Assembly (NCBI GenBank): GCA_017961685.1
Contig: JAGCWW010000084.1
Location: 8,450-72,449, forward strand
DNA length: 64,000 nt
Direction: 5' to 3'
Origin: Acholeplasmatales bacterium
GTDB taxonomy: Bacteria > Bacillota_I > Bacilli_A > Acholeplasmatales > JAEDCM01
The position numbers and the translations under genes were made by a program. The notes under the pieces are model-generated. The model was not told where the DNA came from. It did not search any database and was given only the letters and a program-made list of their open reading frames with translations. Shown here one piece after another: positions 3,675-55,796 of this stretch. The first letter of the stretch is position 1; every line of letters begins with the position of its first letter.

Positions 3675-4991
3675 ATGGACATTGATTTTGAAGGAAAAGG
3701 TGCTGTTAATGCACAACCTAATGGTGGACAGCAAGGAACTTCTGGTAATAACGGTAATCCTGCTAATCAGCCTGATACTACTCATTTAAATGGTAGCGAA
3801 ACTGTTGATATTAACGGAGATGATAAAAACAATAATGGTAATACAGGTGAAGGTGCTACTACTGATGATAATAATGGTGGTAGTAATGGAGAAGAAAATA
3901 AGTCCAATAACTCTTCTACGGGGGGTCTAGAGCCTGGTACTGAAATTGAATTTGATGGTATTATTTATACCGTTGATAATGCAGGAAATGTTGTAGATAA
4001 AGAAGGTAAACTTTTTAAAGAAGCTAAAGATGTAAAAGCATGGCTTGAAGAAAATAATGTTGATGATAATAACGAGAATGATACTTTGTCTATAGATTCT
4101 ATTCGTGAAGCTGTAGGTATTGACATTACTGATGAAAACGGGAAACCTGTAGAATTTACTAATGATGCTGCAGGTGTTAAAAGTTATATAGATTCTGTTA
4201 GAAATCTTCAAGCTGCTGAAATAGCACAAGGTGCTGTTAATAAATTGTTTGCAGATAATCCAGTACTTAAACAGTTTATTGATTATGTTGAAATTACTGG
4301 AAGTCCCAAAGGTTTTGGTGACATTCCCGATAGAAGTGGTATTCAGCTTGATAAAGATAATGAATCTCAGCTTGAAGCTATTGTAAGAATGGCAGCTAAA
4401 GAGTTTGGTAATAGGAGTGTGAGTGATTCTTATATCAAATATCTTAAAGAGTCTGGAGGTCTTTATGATGAAGCTAAAACTCAACTTGAAGCTTTAGTTG
4501 GTAAAGATAAGGCTTATCGTAAAGAAATAGAAAATCGTGCTAAAGCTGCTAGAGAACAAGAGGAACAAAGTGTTCGTAATTATTGGCAAAGCGTTAGTGA
4601 TGCTATAGCTAAAAAAGTTATTGGAGGTTATAAACTTCCTGATAGCTTTGTAAAAGAAATTAATGGTCAAAAGATTACTTATACTACAGAAGATTTCTTT
4701 AAATATCTTTCTGAGCCTGCTGTTAAAGACGAAGATGGTAATGTTTTGACTGGTTATCAAAGAGATTTAGCTAAATTAACTGACGAAGAAGCTTTAAATA
4801 AAGAGCTTCTTGATGCTTGGCTTACATTTACAGGCGGAAGTTATAAAGATTTGATTGACATGGCTATTAAAGAAGATGCTGTTCGCAAATTAGTTATTAA
4901 GTCTAAACAACAACGTTCTGCACATACTGTTAAGATTAATAAGCCAGAAGGTAGTAAAAAAGTAGATTTTAATAAGATTCTACTGAACTAA
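3675..4991 (+). CDS. head-module protein, possible scaffolding/decoration protein
   Basis: ATG at 3675; the track start at 3648 is a TTG. It has a G/N/D-rich low-complexity N-terminus followed by a helical K/E-rich body. It sits directly upstream of the MCP candidate and has strongly biased GGT/GCT/CGT/CTT codon use. Function is guessed from position only. Confidence 0.35.
   Translation: MDIDFEGKGAVNAQPNGGQQGTSGNNGNPANQPDTTHLNGSETVDINGDDKNNNGNTGEGATTDDNNGGSNGEENKSNNSSTGGLEPGTEIEFDGIIYTVDNAGNVVDKEGKLFKEAKDVKAWLEENNVDDNNENDTLSIDSIREAVGIDITDENGKPVEFTNDAAGVKSYIDSVRNLQAAEIAQGAVNKLFADNPVLKQFIDYVEITGSPKGFGDIPDRSGIQLDKDNESQLEAIVRMAAKEFGNRSVSDSYIKYLKESGGLYDEAKTQLEALVGKDKAYRKEIENRAKAAREQEEQSVRNYWQSVSDAIAKKVIGGYKLPDSFVKEINGQKITYTTEDFFKYLSEPAVKDEDGNVLTGYQRDLAKLTDEEALNKELLDAWLTFTGGSYKDLIDMAIKEDAVRKLVIKSKQQRSAHTVKINKPEGSKKVDFNKILLN
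3911..3925 (+). repeat. YnTACGn motif copy
   Basis: ctcttcTACGGGGGG, inside ORF 3675..4991 where it is read as S-S-T-G-G. Confidence 0.9.
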
Positions 4992-9712: not shown

Positions 9713-9747
9713 AATCCCAACATCTCCTTTACGGGGGTGCTGGGATT
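9713..9747 (+). promoter_or_regulatory. 7-bp hairpin presenting the YnTACGn motif in its loop
   Basis: aatccca (9713-9719) pairs with tgggatt (9741-9747). The loop is acatctcctttacgggggtgc. It lies between the stop at 9702 and the ATG at 9760. Confidence 0.6.
9723..9737 (+). repeat. YnTACGn motif copy (intergenic)
   Basis: tctccttTACGGGGG, followed 7 nt later by ATTAAACTTAAT (9745-9756). Confidence 0.9.
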
Positions 9748-10625: not shown

Positions 10626-11380
10626 GTACAAATCTTCAACAAATAGAACCTGAATATATATATGTAACTATACCTGCTGAGTATATATGTGTATATCATC
10701 GTATTCTTGCAATGCTTGCAGATTATGGTGAAGATATGCTTAAAGATTGTAAAGCATCGTGTAAAGATAGGAATGTAAATGTTATTGAATGTTTTAATAT
10801 GTTTAATGCAGCTGTTGCTGCAAGAAAATTAAGTAAAGATAAACTTGCTGAAACTCTTATTAAATATATTAAAGCTAAAATAAATCAAATTTATAAAGGA
10901 CATGATAATTCTACATCTTTTGTATTTCCTATTGATGAAAATGGACAAATTAAAGCTTTTGTATCATGTGGAGAAAGACCTCGTTTTGAAATAAATCCTG
11001 ATGATGGTGCTTTATATGAACATAAGTTTAATAATGGATTTGATGAGCATTTTAAACTTGGTCCAGAAGATGAATCTACCGATGGAGAAGATGTAACACC
11101 CCCCGTAGAAGAAATTGGTTTAGTAATAGATTTTACTCCTGAATATCATCTTGTTGATGGCGAATATAAGCCTTGTGGTGATTTAGTTGTTAGATATAAT
11201 GGAGAATATATTGATCCTAATACTTGTATTATTCAATATTATTTTGATGACATTGTAGTATTAAGATTTAATGATGTTACTGGTTTAACAACAGGAACTC
11301 ATAACTTTAAAGTTGTTGTTACTTATAATAATGAAACTAAAATAGTAAATAAAGATTTATATTATGCAGCTATCAGTTGA
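10622..11380 (+). CDS. hypothetical tail-fibre-module protein
   Basis: 252-aa ORF translationally coupled to its neighbours. Confidence 0.6.
   Translation: MSTNLQQIEPEYIYVTIPAEYICVYHRILAMLADYGEDMLKDCKASCKDRNVNVIECFNMFNAAVAARKLSKDKLAETLIKYIKAKINQIYKGHDNSTSFVFPIDENGQIKAFVSCGERPRFEINPDDGALYEHKFNNGFDEHFKLGPEDESTDGEDVTPPVEEIGLVIDFTPEYHLVDGEYKPCGDLVVRYNGEYIDPNTCIIQYYFDDIVVLRFNDVTGLTTGTHNFKVVVTYNNETKIVNKDLYYAAIS
11099..11113 (-). repeat. YnTACGn motif copy
   Basis: CCCCCCGTAgaagaa, inside ORF 10622..11380 where it is read as T-P-P-V-E-E. Confidence 0.9.
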
Positions 11381-16357: not shown

Positions 16358-16678
16358 ATGGAAATTATTAATAATATTATAGAAACTACAATAAATAGTT
16401 TTGATTTTGTTTATTGTTTAATTGTCAATATTCTTACATATACTGTAATTAAAGTTATTGATGAACTTAATGGTAATAAGCCTATTAGTGTTTGGACTAA
16501 ACGTATAGTGTTATTAATCTGCATCCTCTTTACGGGGGGTCTATATTATACTATAGGCAAAGATTCAGAACTTCTTATAAATAGTGCTATTCTTACTCCT
16601 GTTAGTTGGTCTTGGATATTTAAACCTTTATGTATTAAATTTAATATTGACTATAAACAATTAAAAGAATTAGATTAA
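16358..16678 (+). CDS. small membrane protein (holin-like topology)
   Basis: 106 aa with 2-3 hydrophobic helices (FVYCLIVNILTYTVIKVI, IVLLICILFTGGLYYTI). Confidence 0.5.
   Translation: MEIINNIIETTINSFDFVYCLIVNILTYTVIKVIDELNGNKPISVWTKRIVLLICILFTGGLYYTIGKDSELLINSAILTPVSWSWIFKPLCIKFNIDYKQLKELD
16524..16539 (+). repeat. YnTACGn motif copy
   Basis: tcctcttTACGGGGGG, inside ORF 16358..16678 where it is read as L-F-T-G-G. Confidence 0.9.
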
Positions 16679-20719: not shown

Positions 20720-20751
20720 TTTGCATACTTAGATAAAATGTTTTATCTTTG
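20720..20751 (+). promoter_or_regulatory. Bacteroidota-type promoter (TTTG-N20-TATCTTTG)
   Basis: TTTG at 20720-20723 and TATCTTTG at 20744-20751. This is the best consensus match in the window, about 227 nt upstream of the ATG at 20978. Confidence 0.6.
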
Positions 20752-20821
20752 TCATTGTTAATCATAGTAATAAATATTATATTATTATAATTATTAATAA
20801 ACAAAGAGTTAATTATAAGAA

Positions 20822-20834
20822 CCCCCGTAAAGGA
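20822..20834 (-). repeat. YnTACGn motif copy (intergenic, left member of inverted pair)
   Basis: CCCCCGTAaagga. Confidence 0.9.
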
Positions 20835-20922
20835 CTGTGAATGTTGCTTTTCGTTTTGTTTACAGATTAGTTATGATTATTTTGGTTAATAATGTTTTAT
20901 TTAGTGTATTTATTATCATCCA

Positions 20923-20936
20923 CCTCCTTACGGGGG
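20923..20936 (+). repeat. YnTACGn motif copy (intergenic, right member of inverted pair)
   Basis: cctcctTACGGGGG, followed 7 nt later by ATTAAACTTAAT (20944-20955). Confidence 0.9.
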
Positions 20937-20977
20937 TTTTATAATTAAACTTAATCCTTATAATTTAATATATAAAG

Positions 20978-21664
20978 ATGGCTAGCATTTCTCAAATAGT
21001 TTCTGAATTTGCTCATAGTGTTGGACAACCTAACAATAAAGCACTTAGAGAAAATATTAAATCTTTAATTATTCACACTCGTAATGAAATTATACGAAGA
21101 AGTTATGAGAATCATGGATATATAGATAAAGGTTTAGTTCAAAGATTTAAAGTTAGTTTAATTACAGTAAATGACGGAGAAGTTATATTGCCTGAAGGTA
21201 TAGAAGATACAGACATTGATAAAATTCTTCGTACAGAACAACAAGTTCCAAGACCTGTTAGATTAACTAACAATCTTCCTTTTGATAGAGTTAGTACTGT
21301 TGGGTTTAAAACTAATTTAGAAATTCCATTTATAAAAGAAACTACTGCAAGATTTAGAACTTTTGTTCCTGGTTTAAAAGGACTTCCTTGTTATGATTAT
21401 ATTAACGGGTTTATTTATGTATTTCCAGCAGATAATAGACCTCTTTCTTTTGGTAAACTAGTTATAGAATCTGCTTTTGAAAATCCTACTCCTATAGAAA
21501 TCGCTAATGGTACTATATCAGAGTGGGATTCTTTTATGGATACTAATGAATGGCTTTTATCTGAAGATATGATTGGTCAAATTAAAGATATTATTTATAA
21601 AAGAGATTTACTTAATCAATATAGAGAAACAAATGAAATACCTGCGACTGTAAAATTTAATTAA
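20978..21664 (+). CDS. tail/adaptor-module structural protein, function unknown
   Basis: 228-aa ATG ORF, the first gene after the promoter and leader. Confidence 0.6.
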   Translation: MASISQIVSEFAHSVGQPNNKALRENIKSLIIHTRNEIIRRSYENHGYIDKGLVQRFKVSLITVNDGEVILPEGIEDTDIDKILRTEQQVPRPVRLTNNLPFDRVSTVGFKTNLEIPFIKETTARFRTFVPGLKGLPCYDYINGFIYVFPADNRPLSFGKLVIESAFENPTPIEIANGTISEWDSFMDTNEWLLSEDMIGQIKDIIYKRDLLNQYRETNEIPATVKFN

Positions 21665-27767: not shown

Positions 27768-29661
27768 ACGTAAACTTAGAAGTCAAAGACCGAAAGCTCT
27801 TCTTGGTGCAGATGGTGCTTTAATGGCTGCTGCTATTGCATTGCAGACAGCAAATGATACTGCAAATACAATTCTTAATGTTCAGCAAGCAAAACAAAAT
27901 GCTAGAACTACTACACAAAATGCAAGACTTCAAGCTGATGCTATAGATAGACAAGCTCAAGCTCAAACTAGAGCTATGGCTCAGCAAAATGAAAATAATA
28001 ACGCTCTTCAACAGAAAATAATTGAAGCTAATAAAGAAAATTTTGAAGACCAAACAAATGTTCTTAGAGATATGAATTTAAATATGGCTATGGAACAAGG
28101 TCGACAAAATACTGAAACTAGAAGAGAAGCTGCTAAACTAATAGTTAAACATGGTGGTAGTGTAAGACGTAAACTTAGAAGTGCTAAAAGCTCCCCCGTA
28201 GAAGGGAATAATATGCCTTTTATTGTTACTGACGGTGGCGGAGTTATTCCTATTGCTACAACTCCTGAAGGTTATGATTTATATGAAATTGTAGGAAACG
28301 ACCATGAACATTATCATAAAACTAGAGGTGGTAAATATAAGTCTGGTGTAGGTTTTAAGTTTGCTAATGGTGGAACAGTTGAAGGCGAAGGTAATCAACG
28401 TTCTTCTACGGGGGAGCTAGTATTAGTTACACCTGATGACGCACTTTTTATTTCTAAACATTCTATTAAAGGTTTTAATCCTACAAATGCTGTTATGAGA
28501 GGTATGCATCCAGTTAAAGCTTTTAATGTTCAAGAATCATTAAAAAATGGTAATAATTCTAATAAAGTTTTTATTGCAGCATACGGAGGAAATATTTATG
28601 ACCAACAACCTGGTATAACTACAGATACAGTTCAACAAAGAACTAAACTTTTAGGTATGCCAAATAATGAAGATATAGTAAATGGTGGTTATAATATATT
28701 AAATGGACAATTTAATTCTACAGATTTGTCTAGAACTAATGTTATGAAAGCTAGACGAGGTTGTAGTATAAAAAGAACTAAAGCTATCGATGGAAAAGGA
28801 ATTAAACAATTAGGTTGGACTAGTTTAGGTGCTAATACTTTAGGAGCTATTGGAGGAACTGTAGCTAATATTCTCGGAAATAAGTGGATTACTAGTGCTA
28901 ATAATGAAGCTGCTGATATTTTAGGACAAGCTTATGATACTGCTGGTTCTCAAATGGCTGCTGCTTGGAGGAATAGAAAAGGTATTGATGAATCTATAAT
29001 ATCAGATGATGATTATCGTTATGATCCAGCTGTAGCGGTTATTAGAACAGCAAGAGTTAATAAAAATGCAGAATTAGAAGGTTTAAATAGACAAGAACGA
29101 AATGAATTAAATTTAGCTACAAGAGGTACTTTAAGTTCTGCTAAACGTAATATTTTAAGAGATAAAATCGCTGATAAATATAATGCTTTAAGAAGTAATA
29201 TATACCAACAATTAGCTAATGAGTCTGAACAGATTAAACAATCTAATGCTCAAATGCTTAATCAAATGTCTGCACAAAATGCTGAATTAGCACAAAGAAG
29301 TAGACAAGCAAGAAGTGAAGCTAGACTTAATCTTGCTAGATATAATAATGATATAGTTAATGAAAATATAATGGGAGCTGCTGATGCAGAAACTAGTGCT
29401 TTACTAAATAAAACTGGTGTTCAAGCTAGTACATTACAAGCAAATGCTAATTCTAGAGCTTCTATGGCTAGTAATATTGCTAATACTTGGAATAATGCTT
29501 TACAAAGCAGTATTGGCACTATGACTAATTTATATGGTGCTGCATTAGGTGCAGATTCTGATGTTTTAGATAAGTTTAATTTTAGATTATTTGGTAGAAC
29601 TAAATCTAAAAATGGTGGTTCTGCTAGACGTTTTAATCTAAAACAAATAAACGTTTATTAA
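27754..29661 (+). CDS. virion internal/ejected (cargo) protein candidate
   Basis: 635 aa with Q/A/N-rich helical N- and C-terminal regions. The peptide GGS.RR.L(K/R) recurs (KHGGSVRRKLRS, NGGSARRFNLKQ). Confidence 0.4.
   Translation: MAIIKRKLRSQRPKALLGADGALMAAAIALQTANDTANTILNVQQAKQNARTTTQNARLQADAIDRQAQAQTRAMAQQNENNNALQQKIIEANKENFEDQTNVLRDMNLNMAMEQGRQNTETRREAAKLIVKHGGSVRRKLRSAKSSPVEGNNMPFIVTDGGGVIPIATTPEGYDLYEIVGNDHEHYHKTRGGKYKSGVGFKFANGGTVEGEGNQRSSTGELVLVTPDDALFISKHSIKGFNPTNAVMRGMHPVKAFNVQESLKNGNNSNKVFIAAYGGNIYDQQPGITTDTVQQRTKLLGMPNNEDIVNGGYNILNGQFNSTDLSRTNVMKARRGCSIKRTKAIDGKGIKQLGWTSLGANTLGAIGGTVANILGNKWITSANNEAADILGQAYDTAGSQMAAAWRNRKGIDESIISDDDYRYDPAVAVIRTARVNKNAELEGLNRQERNELNLATRGTLSSAKRNILRDKIADKYNALRSNIYQQLANESEQIKQSNAQMLNQMSAQNAELAQRSRQARSEARLNLARYNNDIVNENIMGAADAETSALLNKTGVQASTLQANANSRASMASNIANTWNNALQSSIGTMTNLYGAALGADSDVLDKFNFRLFGRTKSKNGGSARRFNLKQINVY
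28193..28207 (-). repeat. YnTACGn motif copy
   Basis: CCCCCGTAgaaggga, inside ORF 27754..29661 where it is read as S-S-P-V-E-G. Confidence 0.9.
28402..28414 (+). repeat. YnTACGn motif copy
   Basis: tcttcTACGGGGG, in the same ORF where it is read as S-S-T-G-E. Confidence 0.9.
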
Positions 29662-32799: not shown

Positions 32800-35700
32800 A
32801 TGGATATATTTAGTTTTTTAAATAATAGTGGAACAATACAAGTTCCTAATCCAAATTATAAGCCTAAGTCTAAAAATAACATAGAACCTCCTTATATAAC
32901 AGTACCTAGTATACATACTAGACCTAATGCTGCTGTTGAATTAGCGAAAGAATCTGGATTTAATCAATATAGTGTTACATCAAGTGAAGTAGAAAAATAT
33001 CGCAATTATGGTTTAAATTGGAATCCTAGAGATGCTGCCAATGGCAGTCTTGATAGACAACTAGCAGAATCACAGTCTGCTAGTTCTAAATTTATGCACG
33101 CCTTGGAGCAAGCTATTGTTTCTGAAGTTGGTATAGGTACATTAAAAGGTATATCTGATTTAATTGATGGTATAGGTCAAGCTATTGGAGCTTCTGACCA
33201 CGATTATTCTAATCCTGTTAGTCGTAAATTAGAAGAATGGCAAGAAACTTTTAATAATGATATAGCTCCTATTTATACTACTCCTGGTGTTGATATTAGT
33301 AATGGAGGATTACTTGATGCTGGTTGGTGGGCAAGTAATATTCCAAGTGTTATGTCATCACTAACATTATTAATCCCTTCTACGGGGGTTGTTAAAGGTG
33401 TTAGTTATCTTGGAAAACTTGCTAAAGTTGGTCAAGGTGCATCTAAACTTGGAAGAATAACAGCTAGTTCTGCAAAATGGGCTGCTAGAGCAACTAGATT
33501 AAGTAAATCCGCTGCTGCTCAAAAAGCTTATGCTGGACTTAGAAATTTAACAGAATTAAGTAGTGGTACAAAAGCAACTCTTGGAGTTATGGCTGAAAAT
33601 GGTGTTACTGCTCTTTTAAGTCGTACTATGGAAAATTATCAAGAAGCTCGTCAAACATACGATGATATGTATGAACATGCTTCTGATGCTATAAATAAAA
33701 TGAAGCCTGAAGAATATGATAATTTTCTTCGTAGAAATGCGTATTTCCTAGAAGGTGTTGATACTAATAATAAAGATGAAGTAGCAAAAGCTGTTGCAAA
33801 AGAGTCTGCTGATAAAACCTTTGCAATGGATTTTGCTAATATTGGTTTTGATATTCTTCAGCTTTATGCTCTTCGTAATATGACTTTTAAAGGTTTTAGA
33901 AATCAGCCTTCTAGAGCTTCTATTCGCAGAAAACATCTTAACAGTATTAAATATGCTGGTATGGATGATGCTGAAATTGCTGCTAAAAGAGCAGAAATGA
34001 GTTTTCTTGAAAAATCTAAAGATAAACTTGGCGATTGGTTTTATGGCGGTAGATTAGCTGTAGGAGCTCAACTTAGTGAAGGTGTTGAAGAAGCTGTTAA
34101 CTATGTTGCTCAACAAGAGGGCATGAATCTTGGTCATGTTATGTTGGGTGAAATTGAAGATAATACATTTGCTCGTAGACTTGCTGAGTATGCTAAAGCT
34201 CCTGGACTTTGGGAAAGTGCATTTTGGGGAACTCTTGGAGGTATTGTTTTCCAAGAGTTAGGTAGTGGTTTTAATAGAGCACAGAATGCTATTGCTAAAT
34301 ATAATGATAGAAAAAAGTATAAAGAGGATGCTAAAACTAAAGAAAAAGTAGAGAAACCTACTTGGAAAGAACTTTGGCAAACTCCTGAACTGAAACGTCG
34401 TATTGGAGATGTTGAAGCTAGAAATGGAGATTTACAAGATTTTCTTAATAAACTTGATATGATTGAAAATAAATCTCTTAATCCATATGAAACTGATGAA
34501 AATGGTCAAGCTAGAGGCATTTCTAATAACGAGAAACAAATGCTCAAAGAAAAAGCATATACTGATATGCTTAATAAAATGACTCTTAGAGCATTAGATA
34601 GTGGTAATTTTGATTTACTCAAAGAGTATCTTTCTTCAGATGAAATCAAACAAGTTATAATTAATTCTGGAGCTGTTTCTGCTAGTGATGCTACTAGATA
34701 CCAACAAGATGCTATTAAAAACATGGAAGCTATTGAGAAACAATATGATGCTAATGTTATAACTCTCAATAATCTTACCAAAAAACTTAATACTAATAGA
34801 AAAGAACCAATTCCTGTAGAATATATTCAACTTATTGCAAGAAATAATATTGAGCATCAACTTCAAATTAAAGATTGGGAAGCTCAACTTGCTGCTTGGG
34901 AGATTGAAGGAAATGAACAACAAGAACAATTTAGAGATAAACTTGACCCAAATGTTAATTATAAATCTGCAGTAAGACTTGTATTTCTTAGTAATCAACT
35001 TGGAGAACTAGAAAATCAAAAAAGAAAACTTCTTGCTGATAAGAAATTTATTAATAGTGTTTCTGGTCAACAAGAATTAGATTTTCTTAATAATCAGATT
35101 GAAGCAATTCGAGATATGATTTATAATCTCGAGCCTGATAACGCTGTTGGTAATCTTCTTTTTACAATTCAAAATGCTTTAGCTTATGAGAAAGATGATA
35201 CTGGTGTTGCAAGACATAATTGGACAAATGCTGATTATCTTACTTTCAGAACTAATATTATTGAATTAGAAAATACAGAAGATGCTGCTACCATTGAAAG
35301 AATTGATAAATATCTTGCAGAATTAGACCCAAGACTTGCTGGTGTAGGCAAAAATGATATTATGCGTCATAAACTTCTAGATGATAATATTCGAAGAGCT
35401 TATGATGATAACCGCGGTCTTACTAAAATATCTCAAGATTTACATGATACATTCTTTAGGATTGCTGATTTACAAACAGCTATCGCATTAGAAAGAAATC
35501 AAATTAAACTTACTGAAGATGAAGTATTAAATGAAGTAAGTGCTATTCATAATTTTTTAAATGAAGCTCGTAAAAAAGCCATCGATGATGCAAATGCAAC
35601 ACTTGCTGGTTTAGCTAAAACTTATGGCAGCGATGTTGTTCGTCAAGCTCTTTATGATAGATATCAAAATAATACTGTAAAAGAAGATTATTTTGGTACA

Positions 35701-38700
35701 GAAGGTAAAGCTATATCAGATGCAAGAACGTTTAATGATGCTTTAGATATTCTTAATCTTGATTCTGCTGCCAATAGAAATCTTTTTGGTTATATTGATG
35801 AATTACTTAAATTACAAGATGCTATTAGTGCTGCACAAGGAGAAAATTCTTCCACATCTGAAGAAACAATTTCAGCCACTCAAACTGAGCAAGCGGACAA
35901 TACATTATCAGAGCAAGTTGAAAGTGACACAAAGCAAAAGGAACAGATAAAACCCACTATTCCACAAAGTGAAACACCTTTACAAAAACAATCACAAACG
36001 AGCCAAAATGGAGTTATTACTCTTAAAGAAAATGGAGTAGAATATGCTACTCTTATTCCTAATTCTGATATAGATGGATCTTATACATTAAATATACTTA
36101 ATAACAATCCTTCTAGTCTTGCCTATTTAAATAATGAAGATTTTTATACAAAAGACGGCGTTAGTCTTACTGAAGATTACATTATTAGTGAAAAGCCTGT
36201 AGTTAGAAGAAATAAAGATGGCTCTCTGACCCCCGTAAGGAAAGGATTGATTATTAAAGCTAGTGAAGATAATATTGCTAAAGAAGAAGAAAAACAAGTT
36301 GCTCAAGCTGAAGCTGAGGCTGCATCTCCTTCCTCTACGGGGGGTGTTGTGCAAACTGAAATACCTATTGCTCCTATTCCTGTAGCTACTAATGTTGCTG
36401 CTACTAATGAATATGTTTCTAATCAAACTCAATCTAATGCAGATGTTGTTTCTGGTAATGCTGCTAATGAAATTGGAGCTGAAGTACGAGACGCTCTTAA
36501 GAAAGGTAGTGCTATTGATTGGAATAATTTAAGAGAACGAATGATGAATAAATATCTGCCATCAGCAGAAGATAAAGCAGATACTGAAAGATTAATTGAT
36601 ACTGCTATTCGTTCTTGGAAAGGAATATATGAACGCAAAATAAGTAATAAATCTAATGTTGTTGATGATGCTTTAGTTATGAATAGTTCTATTACTGAGA
36701 AAACTAGAACTAATAAAGCATTGCTTGACGATTTTTATAAAGCTATAGATAAACTTGTTGAGAAATATATAAAAGATGTTGCTGCTGACAAGAGTGATGG
36801 TAAATATTATGTTAGAGTAGAAGATTTACTTCGTTATTGTAATAATGCAACTGAAACTCAAACTACTGCTCAACTATTATTTAATAATCTTGTTGAATAT
36901 ATGAATTCTTCTGATAAATATATTGTTATTGATGGAAATTTATCAGATGCTATAAATAAAGCTAATCAATCTGCTCGTACAAGAATAAATCAATTAAGTA
37001 CTAGAAATGGACTTTATGGCATAAACTTTGAAGGCTTTGTTTCAACTCTTGTTGGTGATGATTTAAAGAAAGTTTTAGATGTTGTTAATAATCTTAATTT
37101 AGGAGATAAAATAGCATTTACTACTACTCCTTCGGGTATACGATTTACAGTAAATGATGTTATGATTGGTTCTTTACCTATTCCTAAAATAGGTAGTAAA
37201 GGAGAACATTGGCAATATAATGACGGTTGGAAAACTGATATTCTTGATGTTAAAGGAACTAAAGTAAGTGCTCTCAAAGATTTGTTTAAAAAATGGATTT
37301 TAAATCCTGATAATAACGTTGACATTCAAGAATTAAACGATATTGTTATTCAGGCTGCTTTTGATAAACTTGAACAATCAGATTTAAACAATCTTGCAAA
37401 ACAACTTTTAAAGAATAAAGAATTTCTTAAAGCCAAAAAAGCAGGATTTGTTTCAGATACTGCTGAATCTTATATATTATTAAATGGTCTTGCTAAACTT
37501 TGGGGATATACTCGTCAAGCTAATGGTCTTACTAAAGAAGAAACTACTGAACTTAGAGAACTTAGTGTAGACAAATGGTTTGATGATGAAGTTGCTCCAA
37601 GTTTTGATATGGCTGAGGCTCTTGCTGCAAAAGATAACGGAGAAGTTATAGTTGGAAAAATAAGTGAAGGAGAACTTATTAGAATTGACGATGAAAAAGA
37701 TGCTATACCAGTATTTGATGCAATAGGTGAAAAACATAAAGGACAAATTAAAATAGCTGCTGCAGAAAAAATAGGTAAATTATCTGTTGCAGGAAAAGGA
37801 ATAAATGGTCAAATATCTTTAGATTATATAGGTATTGCTGGTGGTATTGGATATGGAAATAGTATAGTTGTAATTCCTTCTAGAAGTGGAAATCACGGAT
37901 ATGTTCACGCTTTTCCTCAACCTATTTCATCTAGTCAATTTACTCCAAAAATAAAAGAGATAGTTGCTGCTGTCTTTGCTGAAATAGATAGAATTGGAGA
38001 AGAAGGAACAGTAGACGAAATATATGATAATTTAGAAAAATTTATTACTTATTTACTAAATAAACCTCGTAATGCAAATACTCCTTTATTTAGAGTTCTA
38101 GGAGAAGGAATTTCTATTTATAGAGATAGAGCTACTGGAGAAAAATTAGGTTTTAGTATTGTTTATAAGAAAAGAAATAAAGATGGTTCAGTAGTAAAAC
38201 ATATTGTAACTATAACAAATAAAGGTAGAAAAGATGGTAAGATTTATAAAAGGTCTGGATTAACAGCTTTTGTTGATGGAACTCATATTTCTGATAATAC
38301 AAAGGAATCAATTAATGCTTTAGAAGATTTTATTAAAAAACGGGCTGTATTTAATATAGGCTTTAATTTTATCAATTCAGACAATAATACATCATTACAA
38401 TTTAATAGTTTAGCATATAGAGATAAAGATACTGGAGAATTTATTATAGAAATTCCCAATCAAGGAAAATTTACTTTTGATTCTTTTAATAGTTTTGTTA
38501 TTGATAATAATTTAATATCTTTAACAACTAGACCTGCTCCTGACGGAACTAATTATAGAAAAGGTGCTAGTGTCGGTAATCAAGCTGCTAATCAAGTATT
38601 GAAAGTAAAACTAAAAGTTGACACATCCACCCTCGTAGAGGAAGGTAATAATGAACCTCCTTCTGCTACACAAACCACTGTTGCTAAAGTTTTAGATATT

Positions 38701-42700: not shown

Positions 42701-45700
42701 AAAAGAAAGAAGGTAAAGAAACATTAGTTGGTAATGTTTTCCATAGTGATAGATTTGTTATATTTGATAAAAATGATAATGAAGTAAGAAATTATGGAGA
42801 AGAGTTACTAGAAGAAGTATTTTCTCTCCTCTACGGGGGGGATGATAATACTTATTTGCATTTTACTAAAAATGCAGATGGTAGCGTAAAAAGAGTAAAT
42901 CTTACTGATACTCAACAAGAAGCGGTTGACAACAAAATTGAAGAATTTATTGTTAATTATATAGAACAAGGTTTCAATAGATTATCTAATGTTGAAGGTT
43001 CTTTAAAAGGTACTGAATTAACTCATAATACTGCTGCCGAATTTTTATTAAACTATCACATGATGTATATCAACTTCAATGACTTGTTTGAAGGTGATAC
43101 AAAGTTTTATGGTACTAGTAGAGATTTCTTAAAGCGTGCTAAAGAAGTACAAGGTAGTGGTGTACCTTATGGTCTTGTAGAATACAATGCTAATCTTGGA
43201 GCTGATAAAACTGAAGTTACAAGAAGTATTCTTACTGGCACTGTGTTTGCTAATGGATATAAAGTAAAACAATATAATAAGTTTAGTGCTGTAACTGTTG
43301 TCAATACAATTATGACAAATGAATCAGCTATTAAAACTTTAAGAAATAAACTTATTAAAGATTGTAAATTATCTGAAGAAGATGCAGATGGATTACTTGC
43401 AGGTTATACTCAAGGAACAAAAGTTAATGATGCTCAGTCTTATATTACTTTTGATGAATGGATTAGACGAATTGCTGCTCGTGGTCAACTTATGAGATAT
43501 AAACCTCTTATAGATAAAATTCTTAATGAAGAAGAACTTAATGCTGAAGAACTTTCAGAGTTTGTTCAAGTTCAAAAGAACTTCTATTATGACCAATATT
43601 ATGATAAGAATGCTGGAGTTTTAGTTCCTCGTCAAATTAAGAATGCTGAATTTGTACTTATTCCTCAACTTATTAAAGGTACAGAACTTGAAGCTGTGGC
43701 TGCTATAATGAATAAGTATGACATCGACCAACTTAATACTGTAGAAACAACTAAGGCAGGTAAAACTGATATTCTTGAAATATTTGATGCTAAAACAGGA
43801 GAAGTTAAACAAGACATTATTGATGAAGTAAATGGCAAGGGTATAAGTAGTTTTGGTAAAAAAGCTACTGCTGCTTCTGAATTATTTAGTTACAATTATT
43901 TGTATACTCAGCAAGAAACTCCCCAACATGTTAATACTGAGAATAAAGCTGGTATTCAAATAATGAAGAAAATACTTGATAATAGTACTCCTGATAGTAA
44001 ACTTTGGGAAACTAAACAAAGATTCTTTAGACTTTATTCTGCAAATATCAGAGATAGTTTCCAAAATCTTATGCAAGAATTGAATCTTGAAGTTGATGAA
44101 AATGGTAATTTAGTTCTTGAAGAAGATGCAGATGGAAATAAAACTATTAAAGGTTTAAATGTTGAGTTATTTTGTCAAAGACTTAAAGAAGAATGTATGC
44201 GTTTAGGTCTTGATAGCAATATGCTTGATTATGTAACTCTTGATGCAACTAGGATGGCAGAAAATGGTTTTAATACTATTATGCCAAACTATATGAGTAT
44301 GGTTTCTCAAAAACTTGAAAGTATTGCTCAAAGTTTGTTTAATAGTAGAATTACAAGACAAAAACTTCCAGGTTTCCATGCTGCTCAGATTACTAATGTA
44401 GGATTTAAAGCTCTTGCTTCGTCTAAAGAACAAGTTTCTTATTCTAAAGAATTAAAATATCATCAAGATGAAAATGGAAAGTATGTTCCTTATGTAGAAA
44501 TAATGCTTCCTGCTTCTGCTTTTGGATTTAAGAGAACTAACGAAGATGAAACTCTTAAGACAAAAGAAGAACTTCTTAAAGAACTTCAAGATGCAGGTCT
44601 TGATGAAATTATAGGTTATCGTATTCCTACTGAAGGTAAACAATCTGTTTGTAGAATGAAAGTTGTAGGCTTTATTGATGATGCTTATGGCTCTACAATA
44701 GTTGTTCCTAATGATTGGGTTACTCAAACAGGTTCTGACTTTGATATTGACTCTGTATATGGTATTCAGTTTGAAACTTATATTGACAAAGAAGGACATA
44801 TAAGAAAAACAGAAAAAATAGATGATTTAGAAATATTATATAAATCCTATGTTCTAAAACATCTTACTAAAGAAGAAAGAATTAAAGCTTTTGAAGACGC
44901 AAAAGCAGGAGAAGCAGTAATAAATGAAATAAAGAATAGAAATAAAGATGAAGATACTAATTATTTCAATAGAGAAAAGTTTATTGCTGAATTAAAACAA
45001 TATTCTACTGAAGCATTATTTGGTGTATTAGAAGATATTGCTGAAGAAAAAGGACTTAAAAGTTTTGAAGAATATTCTAAAGAAGATATTGATGAATTAA
45101 ATTCTCGTGCTTCTAGAAATAATGGAATTCTTCAATGTATGCTTGATATTCTTGGCAGTAATGAAGCTCTTGAAGAAAATCTTTCTCGTTCTAATTTTGA
45201 TGATATAACTAATGCTATTATCAAAAATATGAGTGCTAAAGCTAAATTAGAAAGAGAAAATCGTAGTGCTTATAATTTCTTAGACCAAGCAGCATATCAA
45301 GAAGATGCCATGAGTGGTGCTAGACTTAAAGGCTATAGTGTTACTCGTGATACATTCTGTTCTATTTGTAATACTGTTAGACCTACTATTTCTAAGCAGC
45401 ATCAAGTTAAAGTTGTTTATTCAACTGATATGATTTCTTATAACAAAGCTGTTGAAAGATTTGGAAAAGAAAATGTTGAAAAACAAGGTGATGATAAAAT
45501 TGTTATTACACATGATAGATTAGGTTGGACTAATGATAATAAAAATGTTGTAGGTAAGATTTTAACAGCTTATTCTTCTCAAACTACTGCTCATATTCTC
45601 GATGCTATCAAAGAAGGTGCTGTACCAAATGTAAATGAACTTACTTTTGCAGTATTTAAAATATTCCCAGATTTAGGTATTGACTATGATACTGCTGTTG

Positions 45701-48700
45701 CATTTATGATGCAAGACGGTGTTCGTAGAATTGTTGATGCTTATAATTCTACTAATTCTATTTATCAAGAAAGTAGAGGAAATTATATCAACAAAGCTAT
45801 TCGTGATATAGCTAGAGAATTAGGAATGAATATTTCTGGAGTTTCCAATATATTAGATGTTATATCTGCTCTACAAAAAAGATTTGGTGCTGATTTTGCT
45901 AAAATATTTGGAAAAGATGCAGAAATAACTCTTAATGATGATAAGATTGCTCAAACTGCTATAGATGGAGAACAACTTCAAGATGAAATATTAACCCCCC
46001 GTAGGGGAAAGGATAAACTTCTTTTTGATTTAGGAGTTATACTTCAATATTCTAAACTTAGTCATTTTGGAAATTCTATTACTGCTCTTACTAGAGTTTG
46101 TAATCCTGATAAGTTTGGTGCAAAACAAACAATCTTTGCAACAAATAAAATCTTTGATGACATAAAAGATATACTTAATAGTGATAATCCTATTCCTCTT
46201 GAAGTTAAAAGAACAAATTTCCTTGAAGCTATTTATCCTGATGTAGATAAAACTCTTGATGATTTTATTACAGCTCCTAGAAAAGAATCTGCTTATCCTT
46301 CTCTTTATAATTTCTTAAAATATGCTACTGCTACAAGTATTAAAATTAATAGAAGTTTGTTTACTACACAATCTCCTGAATTTATTAATGCTGTTCGTAG
46401 CATAGAAAGACTTTTAAGTGATAATGGTAAACTTACAGAGAAACAATATAAAGACATTGAGAAATACATCATTGGTCATCTTTATAATACTTGTCAAAGT
46501 ATTATGCGTCCTCTTACTTTCGCGGTCAATGGGGATATTGGGTTTGTACCTATTGCGTTAGAGAATGAAAATAGTCTTTCTCAGCAACAAATGTTTGATG
46601 AAGAACGTCGTCGTATATTTGGATATGGTGCTTCTCCAGAAATAAAACTTGAAGTTGCTAATGTACATGAGCCTACTCAAGATGAAGTTAATGCTTTTGC
46701 AAAGTTAACTCCTGCTCAAAAAGTTGCATACATTCAAGGACATTTTTCTAGTGCCGGTGTATTTAATTATATTCGTACAAATTTATTTAATGAGCGTGCA
46801 GCTAGAAGAACTGGAGCTAGTGGTCAAACTATTGAATTTATTGATACATTAGTAAATGTTGAAGATGTATATCAAGCTTTTGTTAATGCCTTTTCTAGTA
46901 CTAATCCTTTGGTAGCTTTAACTGCTTATGATGTTATTAAATATGCATTTGCTGTTGAAGGTTATAAACTTAAGAGAAATGGTGTTAGCAAAATGATTCC
47001 AAATAGTGTTCTTTATAATGACTTCGGAATATATGGAACAGGAATTGTTCAAGAATTAGATGGAAAAGTTCGTAATATTGGTAAAATATTGGCTGATGAT
47101 ATAGAAAAGATTCAAGAAGATTATATTAGAGGTCATAATATGTATCAAATTCCATCTATTAAAGTTCAAAAACCTAAAGGTAAAGGATATGAACTTGTTT
47201 CAAGAAGCAATGGTATTATTCAACTCGGAAAAGATGACGATAGTATTGCTATAGCTGAAAAGTATAGGATTGTTTATAGACGAGGACAAAACGAAGCTCC
47301 TACGGCAAATGCTTATGTTAGATTAACATTCGGCAAAAGAACTGCTCTGTATAAAATAGATGAAAGAAATAATTCATATTACTTATATCCTCTTAATAAT
47401 CTTGAAGAGAATGAACATGGAGAATTTAGTTCTAATGTAGGAAATAATGTATATCCAAAAGAAGATTATTATCTTAGAATTATTAATGAGTATGAATCTC
47501 AATTCTATGATTTTGATGCTAGTAAATTTAGAGAAATAGCAGATAAATATGATGTTGAAGAATTTAAAGCACCAAAAGAAGAAAAAGTTAAAATCAGTCA
47601 TGCTGCTAAAGAATTTAGTCTTGAACATCCAGCAGATAATATGATAGGTGCTGTTGATAAACTTAAGAAAGATGTACAAAGACATTTTGGCGATGAAGAA
47701 CTTAATAATCCTCTATATATTATAAATGCAGGTTTACATAATGCTATAACTCATCCTGGTTATGCTAATGGTACTACTAAATTATTTACAATTAACAAAG
47801 GAACTGCTAATGAAAGAGTTGTAAGACTTAATGTTTATGGTTTAGAGTATAGTATTCTTGAAAGACTTGCAAATAGGTATCTTGATAAAAATACAGGTAA
47901 ACAAATTAGTAAAGGCGATGAAAAATATACTAATATAATAAAATTCTTTAGAGATAATGGTATTGTTAATATTTCTAAAAATCATCCAACTGTTTTTGTA
48001 GTAAGACCTGCTGCTATTGAAGATGATGGTTTACGTAGGTCTAGTCTTGTTGAAACTGGTACTACTGCTTATAAAGCTATAAATCGTAGATTATCATCTG
48101 TTGAAGATGAAGCTGCAATTAACGCTAATCAAAGACTTAGAGATAAAGGTATTACAACTGATAAGAATTCTGTTGCTAATCATATTGATGAAGTAATTAG
48201 AACAACTGCTGAATATGTTGCAACTGTAACAGAAAAAACTGTTAATGGCCTTAAGTATTTTGCTGAAGACCCAAATGGTAATGGGTATTTATCTGTAACA
48301 GACCCTGGTGTAATTGATTTAATTAAAAACGATCCTGCTCTTATAAGAAAGTTCCTAAAGATTATTCTTGATGCTGAGGCTATTGTAAGTAATTTTAAGA
48401 CTATAAATGAACTTGATATTAAATCTCAAGACCCTGAACTTCAAAGATATCTTAATAAGATTAAAGAGTGTGTCAATGATTTACAAAATAATGCTTTAAT
48501 TCGTGGTGCTAAAGAATTATTTGCAAATAATTATCTTGCAAAGCTAAGTAGTGACCCTCTTATTCAACAAGATATTCTTAACATTCTTGATGGTTATCAT
48601 TCTACAAATTCATTTACTGCTTGGGTTAATGACTTACAAGAAACAACTAATCCGTTTATTCAAGTTTTAAGTAAACAAGTAATCGCTGATATTAGAGCTA

Positions 48701-51700
48701 AAGAATTTGAAGCTGTTCGTAGAGTTCGTGCTTGGCAATCATTTGTAAAAGGAATTAAAGCTAAAGCTGCTGCAGCAGGTAAAACTATAAATTGGGATAA
48801 TATCATTGATGAAGACGGTAGATTTATTCAAGAATATACTCAATCTTTAGTAGATGATATGAATCAAATGCGTGATGCTATTGCATCAGCTAAAGCTACT
48901 TATGGAGAAGGAAGTATTGAACACCTTGAAGCTCAACTTAAATACAATAAGTGGAAACTTGAACATATCAATCAAGAACTTGAAGATGACTATTATCGTA
49001 AGAGAATAGAACTTGATGAAGCTATGCTTCATGGTGTAAGAACTTCTTACATAGATGAAAGAACTGGAATGGTTGTTGAAAGTGAAGAACTTAGTGGAGG
49101 TTATCCAATAGTATTCACTGAATATAAGAAACTTGAAGCTAGACGTAGAGATATTTTAAGTCATGTAGTAAATGGAGTTCTTGATGATTATTGGAAACAA
49201 CAATTAGATGAAGTTAATAGTAAAATAAATGATTTAACTAATCAACTTTATCATGATCCTGTTACTGGTGATCTTATTAGTCGTACAGAATATGATAAAT
49301 ATTTAAATCCTGTTTCTGGTACCGAAGAAGAAAAACGACAAAAACTTCTATATTCTGCTGCTAGTCAAAGAGCTATCGCTAAATACATAAAAGATGTAAG
49401 AGAACTTAATACTGAATATTATGGTTATGATGTAGAATTTGGTTTTGAAGAGGAACTTCAGAGAAATCTTCATATAGTTGAAAGCTATGAGAAGCGTGAT
49501 GCTAATGGAAACATTAGTACTCCTATGAACTTACTTATGGAAAATGATGAGTATGTTCGTGCTAAAGAATGGCTTGCTTCTAACGCTAGATTTGTTGTAT
49601 CTCTTGCTGATGATTCAGAACTTGCTAGAAAACTTAATGAGGCTTATAATGTATTAAGAAGAAGTGATAATACTAAAGAAAATTCTTATGGTCTTGTTAT
49701 AGCTAGAAAAGCTAAAGACAGAAATGCTTATGATAATCGTGGTGTAATAGACGGTACAAAGTTTACAGATGACGATATAAAAGCTATCAAAGCTGACCAA
49801 CAAGCAGCATATAGTTTCAGAGAAGATGCTCCATTCTCGGATAAGGGACTTATAAGCAATGCTTCTCCTACGGGGGAGATATATACATCTGAGTTCTACA
49901 AAGGTATGACTTCTAATGGTACTTCTAATCCAGAATGGATTAAAAAAGTACATGAAATAAATGAACTTCTTGCTCCATACTATGATAATGGTACTAAAAC
50001 TATTAGATTTGACCTTATACCAAACACTGACGAGGGCAGAGCTGTTTATACTAAACTTGAACAACTTTATAAGGATTTAGCCGAAATTAAGAAAACAGTT
50101 GATGGAGATAATGGTAAAGAAATTGCACAATTTATTGAAAAGAACGTTGATTTTAACATCGATAAAGATGAATTTAATAAACAAAAAAGTCTTGCTGAAG
50201 AAAAAGGTAAACTATATTATAGTTTCTGGGTTAAAGCTAATATGGAAATAGTTGATGATGAAGCTGTTCCAAATCATTATATTTATGGTTACACTACACC
50301 TAAAGCAGAAATTAAAGAAAAGTATTTAGATAAGAAAAAGACTGAAGCTCTTCAACTTATTAATAAAATTTATACTACAGTACCTACGGAATACTATTAT
50401 CAAAAAGTTCAAGAAGTTAAACAACAAGGCAAAGAAGCTTATGATAAATGGTATCATGAAAATCATATTTATAATCCATATACTCATACTTATGAACCTC
50501 TTCGTTGTTGGACTAAAAGAACATTCAGAGATACTTCTTCTGCTGTAGGTAAATGGGAAGCTGCAATGAGTAAAAGAACTAGAAAAGCAAAACAAGAATA
50601 TATTAATCCTAATTATAAACCTGAAGTAGGTAATGCTCTTAATTATAAGAAAGGTAGTGGATATGATAATTCTAGAATAAACGATGCAAATGAATTTGAA
50701 AATGAACTTAAACTAGAAATGCAAAAACTTCTTTCTGACCTTGTTAAAACTAAATTTGGAAGAAGATTTATTGATAAAGGTTATCTTCCTGTTAGACGTA
50801 AAGCAGAAGAGCATGATGCTAAGTTTTGGGGAAAAGAACTTCTTAAAACTATCGGTTGGGTTGAAGGACATTCTGGTGAAGAACCTTTCTATGAGGATTT
50901 AGATTATGCTAGAGATAAAACTATTTCAATGCCTATGCTTTCTCTTATTGGTCAAAAAACTCTTGAAAGTTTAAATATAAAAGAACCAAAACGAGAAGAA
51001 TATAATACTGACGCTGAGTATGCAGCTGCTGTAGATAAGTATAATAAAGATGTTGCAGAACTTAAAGAAAATAATAAGCAAGCACATCAGGATGCTATTG
51101 ATAGAAATTGGGAAGAAGTTATAAAAGATTTTATTCTTCAAGCTTCTCATTTCAATGCAGTTCAAGATAACAAATATATGCTATTCTATGGAAAGTCTAT
51201 GCTTGAGAATATGGGTGTTTATCAAAGAAGATATGGTTTCTTTGGAGATTATAAGAAAGACTATATAAATTCTGATGATACTACAACTGAATATATCAAG
51301 CGTAAAGATGAAAATCTTCTTAAACAATATGAAAATTGGATTCGTAGAATAGTTTATGACCAGTGGAAAGAGTCTAATGGAATGTTTACTAAATGGGCTT
51401 CTAGACTTCAAAGTATAACATCTGCTCAATACATGATGATGAATATTAGAGGTGGTATTGCTAATGTTACTTTAGGTGAAACTAACATTCTTGCTGAAGC
51501 TTTTGCTAAAGAATACTTTGGAACAAAAGATTGGCTTGCAGGTAAATCATATTGGATGGCTGGTATTCCAAGTTATTTTGCTAATGCACATAAACCAATT
51601 TCTACTAGTGTTGCAGACGCTATTATTAAATTCTTTAATGTAGTTGACTTTGATGAACTTACTGGTAAATCTAGAATTATAGAGAATCCTGTTAGTGAAG

Positions 51701-55655: not shown

Positions 55656-55710
55656 ACACCATATTTAATAATATCAATTTTATATGTATTAAGATAAGTT
55701 AGAATATATC

Positions 55711-55727
55711 TATCTCCTTTACGGGGG
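55711..55727 (+). repeat. YnTACGn motif copy (intergenic, left member of inverted pair)
   Basis: tatctccttTACGGGGG. Confidence 0.9.
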
Positions 55728-55778: not shown

Positions 55779-55796
55779 CCCCCGTAAGAGGAGATA
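55779..55796 (-). repeat. YnTACGn motif copy (intergenic, right member of inverted pair)
   Basis: CCCCCGTAagaggagata. Together with 55711-55727 it forms a 17-bp inverted repeat with one bulge. Confidence 0.9.

Follow-up and report, generated by a model that had tools for sequence, protein, structure and literature searches.

An inverted pair of copies of a dispersed, strand-oriented motif in the leader of the tail ring protein 2 operon of a crAss-like phage

In the 64,000-nt stretch of contig JAGCWW010000084.1 analyzed here (positions 8,450 to 72,449 of the forward strand; below, the window), which derives from a crAss-like phage, the operon that begins with the gene for tail ring protein 2 is preceded by a long leader containing an inverted repeat. 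We find that the two arms of this repeat are 2 of the 19 copies in the window of an oriented motif, about 20 nt long, which consists of a pyrimidine tract, TAC, a run of five to seven G residues, and a lineage-specific flank, and which recurs on both strands throughout the genome. The best explanation overall, to which we assign a probability of roughly 40%, would be that a conserved promoter drives the ring protein 2 operon through a leader dominated by two inverted copies of this motif. The motif itself is probably in the first place a strand-specific signal at the level of DNA that is read by a phage-encoded factor. Functional statements throughout are drawn from sequence. The replication and gene regulation of Crassvirales, the dominant phages of the human gut and including its most abundant virus, p-crAssphage, are almost unknown. 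The motif is apparently undescribed; literature searches with motif strings and crAss-related keywords returned no description of it, with coverage incomplete and an earlier description possible.

The window has a G+C content of 29.8%, and its nearest annotated relatives belong to the Intestiviridae, with ring protein 2 identities to the window of 72% (cr271_1), 65% (cr8_1), and about 47% (p-crAssphage and crAss002). Megablast of the locus against phage records gave zero matches, and the relatives were reached by protein-level search. The homologous loci of relatives are numbered in the range L001 to L051, of which L021 to L038, L050, and L051 are the cr8-like loci; WIN denotes the window. The layout of the motif was analyzed in six genomes, namely the window, cr271_1 (L172/L173), cr8_1 (NC_055877; L174/L175), crAss002 (L296 and L297), p-crAssphage ZA (L300), and crAss001 (MH675552, 1-100000; L298 and L299). 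The motif was defined by a regular expression picked separately for each lineage, and the site list for p-crAssphage is incomplete.

RESULTS

Both arms of the leader repeat belong to a dispersed motif

The window contains the exact sequence YYTACGGGGG 18 times, where 0.01 would be expected, and these copies, together with one degenerate copy, make up 19 of its 21 runs of five G or C residues (G5/C5 runs; Table 1). Indeed, the motif accounts for nearly all such runs in these AT-rich genomes. About 70% of the copies in the window are intragenic, without regard to frame or strand, and about half run antisense to the genes; five or six are intergenic, which is three to four times the non-coding share. 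The plus-strand gene block contains open reading frames (ORFs) of 2300 aa and 4464 aa, both of which carry copies. Within genes, the motif encodes STGG, LYGG, PVEE, or PRRG by means of ACG, GGG, and CCC codons that are otherwise avoided in this AT-rich genome. Since the copies occupy different frames and strands and use avoided codons, the constraint acts on the nucleotides and not on the protein. A peptide repeat was ruled out as the source of the pattern, because the motif is not tied to one frame or strand and also occurs outside coding sequence. Of the structured leader described in the initial annotation, the hairpin is conserved, and four U residues follow its G-run, but neither arm is specific to the leader.

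A weak second element (AAACT/TTAAT) is found downstream of many motif copies, and the box ATTAAACTTAAT belongs to it. As had been noted, 7 nt separate this box (20944-20955) from the G-run of the right leader copy upstream of it, and the distance is the same for the box that follows the copy with its end at 9737; a third near-copy, AATAAACTTAAT, follows at equal spacing the minus-strand site 63361-63371 inside the primase gene. No AT-rich unwinding flanks were found around the copies.

Each lineage carries its own version of the motif

Each sampled Intestiviridae genome has its own motif consensus that is common to all its copies: cAT.TCTTCTACGGGGGAGCTA in cr271_1 (17 copies, of 18 G5/C5 runs), cATACCTTTTACGGGG[C/G]GGCTAGA in cr8_1 (27 copies), CTCCTTTAYGGGGGAA in crAss002 (31 copies), and TCCATCCTCYACGGGGGGTC in p-crAssphage ZA (14 copies, of 16 runs, along with more degenerate ones). 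The Steigviridae phage crAss001 is devoid of the G5 form and carries 27 copies of CTTCTGGAG on both strands, 14 of them in the first 50 kb against 0.44 expected. To judge from the resemblance, CTTCTGGAG may be a shortened relative of CTTCTACGGGGGAG and the counterpart of the motif in the Steigviridae. An exact 14-mer of the motif has several matches in each of many further crAss-like contigs about 90 kb in size, while a 15-mer scan of bacterial genomes gave scattered single matches only. Both crAss002 and crAss001 infect Bacteroides, yet they bear different motifs. Because two Bacteroides phages differ in this respect and the bacterial scan gave only scattered single matches, the factor that reads the motif would appear to be encoded by the phage; a host repeat or host-specified signal was ruled out on the same two grounds.

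Between genera, 8 of 19, 7 of 19, and 11 of 17 copies (37 to 65%) stand at a homologous position in the same orientation. Among these positions are the primase copy that codes for YGG, two copies in the giant gene, and the leader pair. Gain and loss of copies proceed through point substitution and leave the length unchanged, as where SSTGE of the window (28403-28418) is replaced by SNQGE in cr271_1 and STGE by STEK in cr8_1, and the interior between the two in-gene copies at 28189-28418 encodes the best-conserved part of that protein. At 28193-28202 the window has the motif at a spot homologous to L172 39082 in the opposite orientation, in a linker with a seven-codon indel (SSPVEG versus NILLRGS).

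Several copies in crAss002 and p-crAssphage are directly followed by a GC-rich element (GAGCGAAGCG, GCGGAGCGAAGCGGAGCG) with GCGAAGC/GCGGAGC mini-hairpin cores, examples being crAss002 4217-4245, 47847-47875, and 86188-86220 and p-crAssphage ZA 5968-6005, 28310-28340, and 45061-45090. The word GAGCG of these elements occurs at 8 sites in the two phages against 0.26 expected, and in p-crAssphage degenerate G4 copies adjoin such elements. Over all crAss002 sites, TAC predominates in copies with the G-strand as coding strand and TAT in copies on the template strand. This split shows that the position is functionally Y, and it may reflect avoidance of a frame-independent ATG on the sense strand. 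Long-range RNA pairing of neighboring inverted copies was ruled out: neighbors in cr8_1, as read from the site lists, do not share variants, and in crAss002 the pairing of sense TAC with antisense TAT would give C·A mismatches.

The cr8_1 record begins and ends inside a motif copy (L174 1-120, L175 end): an identical stretch of 40 nt, closing with a G7-8 run, is present at both ends, next to a close inverted pair at 46/119. Either an assembly break at a homopolymer or some physical property of the DNA may be the cause. Among the IMG/VR loci, no contig was seen to end at the motif; only the cr8_1 record ends in a copy.

Copies are evenly spaced on each strand

The orientation of the copies alternates in 100 of the 132 adjacencies over the six genomes (p 1e-9), and it does so because copies of the same orientation are evenly spaced. 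In the window, the coefficients of variation (CVs) of same-strand spacing are 0.22 and 0.26, with spacings of about 5.8 and 7.5 kb. The corresponding values are 0.41 and 0.41 for cr8_1, 0.40 and 0.50 for crAss002, 0.43 for one strand of cr271_1, and 0.46 for one strand (minus) of crAss001, all with p below 0.01 against random placement. In crAss001, no two plus-strand CTTCTGGAG copies are adjacent. Both strands are used to a similar extent (plus/minus, 11/8 in the window, 13/13 in cr8_1, and 17/14 in crAss002). By a hand count from site lists and gene tables, 11 intergenic copies are sense and 14 antisense to the neighboring gene.

The inverted pair in the leader

The repeat lies where the initial annotation had placed it (CCCCCGTAAAGGA, 20822-20834, and CCTCCTTACGGGGG, 20923-20936, with outer ends 115 bp apart), but it is longer than had been noted, pairing 20806-20834 with 20923-20952 and taking in part of the ATTAAACTTAAT box. 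The pair has 14 additional complementary bases outside the motif, and in close pairs complementarity extends past the motif itself. A CCCCC:GGGGG pair closes the core stem, and the U-run that follows consists of four U residues only (TTTT, 20937-20940). Compared with shuffled sequences, region 20800-20960 folds strongly both as RNA (-40.9 kcal/mol, z -4.45) and as DNA (-19.5 kcal/mol, z -4.24), and a simple terminator scan scored 20922-20937 plus TTTATAATTA as terminator-like. The hairpin resembles a terminator or attenuator but departs from one in two respects, namely in not being compact and in the absence of an identified alternative structure. No antiterminator, leader peptide, or ligand sensor was identified, with no search aimed at alternative pairings; the interior and the small ORF in it are unconserved and correspond to no Rfam family. 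Rfam covariance models gave zero matches at gathering score in the whole window, and a tRNA scan was likewise empty.

The same hairpin arrangement is present upstream of the homologous gene in most relatives, with a T-run after the right arm in most. The interior, 97 nt in the window, varies from 3 to about 150 nt across relatives (33 to 154 nt in many) and is compact only in the cr8-like group, where one continuous hairpin of 29 to 32 bp stands 27 nt before the ATG with no promoter upstream of it. Only the left arm is present in L010 to L012 and only the right arm in L020/L047, and in crAss002 the two copies at this locus are 962 bp apart and flank two genes. To judge from relatives with one arm, or with arms 962 bp apart around two genes, the hairpin would seem not to be required.

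The covariation that had been proposed as a check was indeed found in relatives. When the arms of 18 lineages are aligned, 74% of the cells pair, compared with 65% after shuffling and 44 to 53% with the partners slid, and the covariation score is 0.332 versus 0.183 for shuffles; in 0 of 500 shuffles was the pairing or the covariation value reached. Compensatory changes are present, with 19 of 26 pairs changed on both sides. Some are specific to the pair: L002 (GGCGAGG), L018 (TATAGGGG), and L040 (TACTAGGG) each have their own non-canonical change repeated in both arms, while single copies elsewhere in those loci are canonical.

Comparison of relatives shows a mosaic junction in the region upstream of the pair. 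In the cr8-like loci, the approximately 40 nt on each side of the hairpin fall into haplotypes (left, AAACCC or AGAGCC; right, TTTAACTACTACTGAT or TTCAAATAATACTAYT) that occur in recombinant combinations in L032, L033, and L038. Since these haplotypes recombine across the hairpin, it lies at or near a crossover point.

A conserved host-type promoter far from its gene

The promoter reported ahead of the leader, TTTG-N20-TATCTTTG, was recovered at the same position (Table 1) and matches the host-type consensus exactly. By its sequence, it is an ordinary Bacteroidota primary-sigma promoter, real and conserved: it shows no difference from promoters of that class (TTTG at -33, TAnnTTTG at -7), including the 20-nt spacer, and is unusual only in its distance from the gene of about 215 nt. 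The pattern TTG-N20-TAnnTTTG occurs upstream of the repeat in WIN, L001, L005, L008, L009, L017, L018, L020, and L040, against 0.023 expected per region, with conserved N20 spacing, while the DNA flanking it is unalignable among the lineages that keep it. Within the window, the loose promoter pattern is not enriched (5 found versus 3.7 expected), so that support for the promoter comes from its conservation across nine lineages and not from enrichment. A host-polymerase promoter is likewise located upstream of the homologue of the ring protein 2 gene in phi14:2. Transcription is predicted to start at about 20758-20762, a few bases past the -7 box, and a start just past that box would give a leader of about 215 to 220 nt, in agreement with the earlier estimate of about 220 nt.

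A second exact TTTG-N20-TATCTTTG is found at 55522-55553 on the minus strand, overlapping the called TTG start of ORF 54962-55552. In minus-strand reading, it sits just downstream of the intergenic pair 55710-55797, so that the order is pair and then promoter, the opposite of that at the leader locus. Compact terminator-like hairpins with T-runs (stems of 12 to 17 bp) are present between and inside small genes upstream of the locus at 19760-19787, 20244-20283, and 17516-17544 (+), one of them within ORF 20210-20590.

DISCUSSION

The motif is asymmetric, tuned to the lineage, indifferent to frame and transcription, long held in place, and evenly laid out on each strand, and it is for these reasons that we regard it as a strandwise signal at the DNA level and not as an mRNA signal. 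Each strand of the genome would carry its own regular series of copies, one per 5 to 8 kb in the window. The copies at 20822 and 20927 would be members of the minus- and the plus-strand series that meet in a gene-free gap, where selection may have lengthened the complementary stretches to form a stem of about 27 bp. Such a layout would be needed for primer synthesis on both template strands, for programmed nicking, or for the control of a nuclease in the manner of Chi. At the locus itself, the host-type promoter at 20720-20751 would drive the tail ring protein 2 operon via a leader of about 215 nt, and the transcribed pair would fold into a hairpin ending in GGGGG-UUUU. What looked like an isolated structured leader may thus be reread as one node of a genome-wide system.

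Tentatively, the signal might mark the places where a phage enzyme starts RNA synthesis, and the form of this idea that we favor is sequence-specific priming by a DnaG-like primase that lacks zinc ligands. We favor priming because of a precedent in plasmid RSF1010, because of the loss of zinc ligands in the primases, and because of the GCGAAGC-type mini-hairpins beside copies. The Intestiviridae primases have a DnaG-like N-terminal domain (with an 'SPFRxDxHPSFGF' segment) and have lost the Cys/His zinc ligands of the domain that reads the template; their genes are at 62982-63956 (-) in the window and at L173:27614-28843, L175:32311-33534, L297:23959-25092, and L300:15800-17095. Searches with the Intestiviridae primase gave zero PDB or Pfam sequence matches. 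In RSF1010, ssiA and ssiB are reportedly located on opposite strands in the arms of a palindrome and are said to be read by the plasmid's own primase, RepB'. Like these sites, the crAss motif is a strand-specific signal of tens of nucleotides, one per strand, and the arms of the plasmid palindrome match the back-to-back pair seen here. Unlike RSF1010, which has two sites at one origin, the crAss genomes have 17 to 31 copies, evenly spread, for the most part intragenic, and in most cases lacking a hairpin of their own. Furthermore, the crAss primase, which may prime at the motif, is, unlike RepB', of the TOPRIM/DnaG type. Kindred strand-start signals are the ColE2 Rep origin and the complementary-strand origins of G4 and phiX174; stable mini-hairpins of the GCGAAGC type occur at the latter two, and hairpins of this type stand beside some copies in crAss002 and p-crAssphage.

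Several observations weigh against this interpretation. The link of the motif to the primase, or to any other protein, is conjectural, and a DnaG-type primase with specific priming sites of 20 nt at intervals of 5 to 8 kb would be out of the ordinary. Arm covariation is partly automatic and thereby inflated, since both arms track the motif variant of their lineage. Under the G5 definition, p-crAssphage, with its incomplete site list, shows no significant regularity or alternation (CV 0.62 and 0.63; 8 of 14). At the leader position, p-crAssphage-like genomes carry an ordinary terminator followed by a promoter, which fits an RNA-level role there. Finally, single copies in the window fold on the G-strand with a mean z of -2.4 (compared with 0 to -1 in four relatives), so that single copies may have an RNA or single-strand structural role in this phage, though not in those four relatives. 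Close pairs fold strongly.

The rival that survives best, although we consider it rather unlikely as the primary function, is that the pair is an RNA device of the leader, i.e., an attenuator or terminator, an RNase III-type processing site, or a stabilizing hairpin that sets the level or timing of tail mRNA. The position of the pair between a promoter and a gene, its strong fold (Table 1), the terminator-like scan result, the T-run after the right arm in most relatives, the continuous hairpin shortly before the ATG in cr8-like phages, the classical terminator at this position in p-crAssphage-like genomes, and the pair-specific part of the compensatory changes are all consistent with it. Likewise, intrinsic terminators, attenuators, and the RNase III hairpins of T7 have in common with the pair a GC-closed stem with a U-run behind it, placed ahead of one gene and after a promoter or another gene. 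Unlike terminators and attenuators, however, the leader pair has an interior of 97 nt and variable length, which resembles neither a terminator loop nor a riboswitch, and its arms come from a genome-wide motif that is mostly found outside such a context, being mainly intragenic and antisense as often as sense. Moreover, a copy is kept without the hairpin in L010 to L012, L020, and crAss002, there are no Rfam matches, and the U-run is inconsistent in some lineages, such as crAss002. In cr8-like phages, where the stretch from the upstream gene to the hairpin contains no promoter, an efficient terminator would silence the tail operon. Attenuation, timing control, or processing by a structured leader, as put forward in the initial annotation, is therefore plausible as a secondary effect and not as the main explanation, given the dispersal of the motif, the relatives without a hairpin, and the cr8-like phages without a promoter. 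Since the conserved promoter reads through the pair, the RNA is expected to form the hairpin and UUUU, and we put at about even the chance that the hairpin additionally acts as a partial terminator or as a stabilizing or processing structure for the mRNA of the tail operon.

Programmed single-strand breaks in virion DNA, as in T5, phiKMV, and tf, with the pair representing two nick sites on opposite strands, are improbable. The nick-associated motifs of phages number about 13 or more copies, are nearly 90% coding, and are retained family-wide despite low nucleotide identity, with their function unexplained (PMC11780129). The crAss motif is similarly short, oriented, conserved in the family, and largely in coding sequence. 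Consistent with nicking, the Intestiviridae encode an ATP-dependent DNA ligase, and the TAC core of the motif also occurs in the nick motif TACTRTGMC of tf/Rembedalsseter. Yet the nick motifs of tf/Rembedalsseter, phiKMV, and T5 are 9 nt long, almost all on one strand, and clustered toward one genome end (PMC11780129, PMC3517423), whereas the crAss motif, known here from sequence alone, has about 20 nt and uses both strands evenly with regular spacing. In close pairs, the two strands would be nicked only 35 to 100 bp from each other, and no conserved nicking enzyme was found. The HNH endonuclease encoded beside the DNA ligase gene (window 60279-60887, -) was rejected as the motif reader, being a sporadic homing endonuclease; its relatives are scattered among homing endonucleases of Enterococcus, Lactococcus, and other phages, and among crAss-like phages only cr271_1 has a close copy.

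Similarly doubtful is a role of the motif as a promoter at which the injected two-barrel virion enzyme, a phage RNA polymerase, would start at the G-run, perhaps on single-stranded or hairpin DNA as in N4. With its length of about 20 to 23 bp, asymmetry, G-rich downstream end (the presumed start), tens of copies, conserved positions, and lineage variants, the motif resembles T7-type promoters. Eight sense copies lie about 20 to 80 nt before an ATG, as read off the site lists and gene tables, and in 8 of 10 very close pairs starts at the G-run would diverge. The virion polymerase of phi14:2 transcribes single-stranded DNA, and the GCGAAGC/GCGGAGC mini-hairpins beside some copies are of the type that the promoter hairpins of phage N4 are said to have. 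In contrast to T7-type promoters, which are all codirectional with the genes and serve a single-subunit polymerase, about half of the crAss copies oppose the genes, including copies inside late structural genes; a single-subunit polymerase is not annotated in the relatives. The copies are genome-wide and not confined to an early region, and in phi14:2 the early transcripts of the virion polymerase have no common upstream motif, while middle and late genes use the host polymerase.

Less probable still is a Chi-like signal that tames a phage helicase-nuclease, or a recombination hotspot, with both orientations kept so that any break would soon be protected. The copies are regularly spaced on each strand separately, as a signal of this kind would require, genes for RecT, a PD-(D/E)XK exonuclease, a Gam-like inhibitor, and RecD/Dda-like helicases are present in the phages, and the mosaic junction lies upstream of the pair, but Chi sites have 5 to 8 nt and are set by the host enzyme, whereas the motif has about 20 nt and differs between two Bacteroides phages. 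Lastly, a selfish GC-rich palindromic mini-element that inserts in frame into genes (cf. Rickettsia RPEs, yeast mitochondrial GC clusters, and miniature inverted-repeat transposable elements [MITEs]), which might be suggested by the GC-rich character of the motif in an AT-rich genome, by close pairs with inverted arms 100 to 220 bp apart, some inside ORFs, and by the copy in the indel-bearing linker that is inverted relative to cr271_1, is largely refuted by the conserved interior of the 28189-28418 pair, which is no insertion, by turnover through substitution without change in length, by the conservation of many positions across genera and subfamilies (37 to 65% between genera), by the predominance of single copies, and by the 115-bp pairs 20822-20936 and 36230-36344, which by eye have no evident interior similarity or target-site duplication.

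Returning to the reading of the motif as a DNA-level signal, its selection even inside giant structural genes would point to a core step in the life cycle of crAss-like phages. Conceivably, Crassvirales genomes are punctuated on each strand by a regular, lineage-specific start signal of about 20 nt that coevolves with a phage enzyme, either the zinc-less DnaG-like primase, which would then act at dedicated sites only, or the virion RNA polymerase, although this remains speculative. If true, replication or transcription would follow a genome-wide cis 'grammar' for which no counterpart has been described in tailed phages, and the leader hairpin at 20806-20952 would be a node of both strands, possibly an origin-like site. 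Cultured phages with the motif are available in crAss002 and, with its own version, crAss001. The motif may be used as a sequence signature for recognizing and subtyping crAss-like phages, and in recoding or engineering their genomes the motif stretches would not be free to change.

FEATURES OF THE WINDOW AND NEIGHBORING GENES

Table 1. Leader elements, tail ring protein 2 gene, and motif copies of the window
Position	Strand	Feature	Basis
20720..20751	+	Bacteroidota-type promoter: -33 TTTG 20720-20723, 20-nt spacer, -7 TATCTTTG 20744-20751	Sequence
20806..20834	-	Left hairpin arm with minus-strand motif copy (core 20822-20831, minus-strand reading TTTACGGGGG)	Sequence, folding, covariation
20835..20922	.	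Hairpin interior, AT-rich; sequence and length unconserved among relatives	Comparison of loci
20873..20944	+	23-codon ORF (MIILVNNVLFSVFIIIHLLTGVL), most likely not a gene	Translation
20923..20952	+	Right hairpin arm with plus-strand motif copy (core 20927-20936, CTTACGGGGG), then TTTT 20937-20940	Sequence, folding, covariation
20944..20955	+	ATTAAACTTAAT box, 7 nt past G-run, partly inside outer stem	Sequence
20978..21664	+	Tail ring protein 2 gene, first of tail and cargo block	Pfam PF25702 CrAss_Ring_2, E 1.4e-52
3915..3924	+	Copy in gene 3648-4991, codes SSTGG; position conserved in cr271_1 and crAss002	
9728..9737	+	Intergenic copy, 23 nt before ATG at 9760; own stem AATCCCA...TGGGATT, then ATTAAACTTAAT box; position conserved in cr8_1	
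11100..11109	-	Copy in gene 10622-11380, antisense, codes PPVEE	
16529..16538	+	Copy within doubtful ORF 16358-16678	
28189..28204	-	Copy in gene 27754-29661; left arm of perfect 16-bp inverted repeat AGCTCCCCCGTAGAAG	
28403..28418	+	Copy in gene 27754-29661; right arm of AGCTCCCCCGTAGAAG repeat; codes SSTGE	
33379..33388	+	Copy in 2300-aa gene 32800-39702	
36230..36239	-	Copy in 2300-aa gene; left member of close pair 36230-36344	
36334..36343	+	Copy in 2300-aa gene; right member of pair 36230-36344; position conserved in cr8_1	
42830..42839	+	Copy in 4464-aa gene 39721-53115; position and orientation conserved in cr271_1 and cr8_1	
45996..46005	-	Copy in 4464-aa gene, antisense; position and orientation conserved in cr271_1 and cr8_1	
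49867..49876	+	Copy in 4464-aa gene	
51911..51920	-	Degenerate copy in 4464-aa gene (TCTAAGGGGG on minus strand)	
55710..55727	+	Intergenic copy, minus-strand gene block; left arm of 18-bp inverted repeat	
55779..55797	-	Intergenic copy; right arm of 18-bp inverted repeat with 55710..55727	
62182..62191	+	Copy in minus-strand gene 62092-62577, antisense	
63361..63370	-	Copy in primase gene, codes LYGG; position and orientation conserved in cr271_1 and cr8_1	

The tiny hydrophobic ORF that had been pointed out within the leader exists, one base away from the coordinates first given for it, and it is absent or unrelated in relatives. The ATG at 20978 does open the tail block, and its product is the crAss tail ring protein 2, for which 51 homologues were found; older records label homologues "IHF subunit." The two genes that follow (21671-22624 and 22572-23312) overlap by 53 nt, and a similar overlap is annotated in cr271_1 (33635-33690) and crAss002 (35956-36002), which may hide a frameshift or reflect tight packing. 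In cr271_1, the DNA polymerase (83336-86033; L173 33336-34385 and 34777-36033) is annotated as two coding sequences about 390 bp apart, which may be due to an intron, an intein, or a sequencing frameshift.

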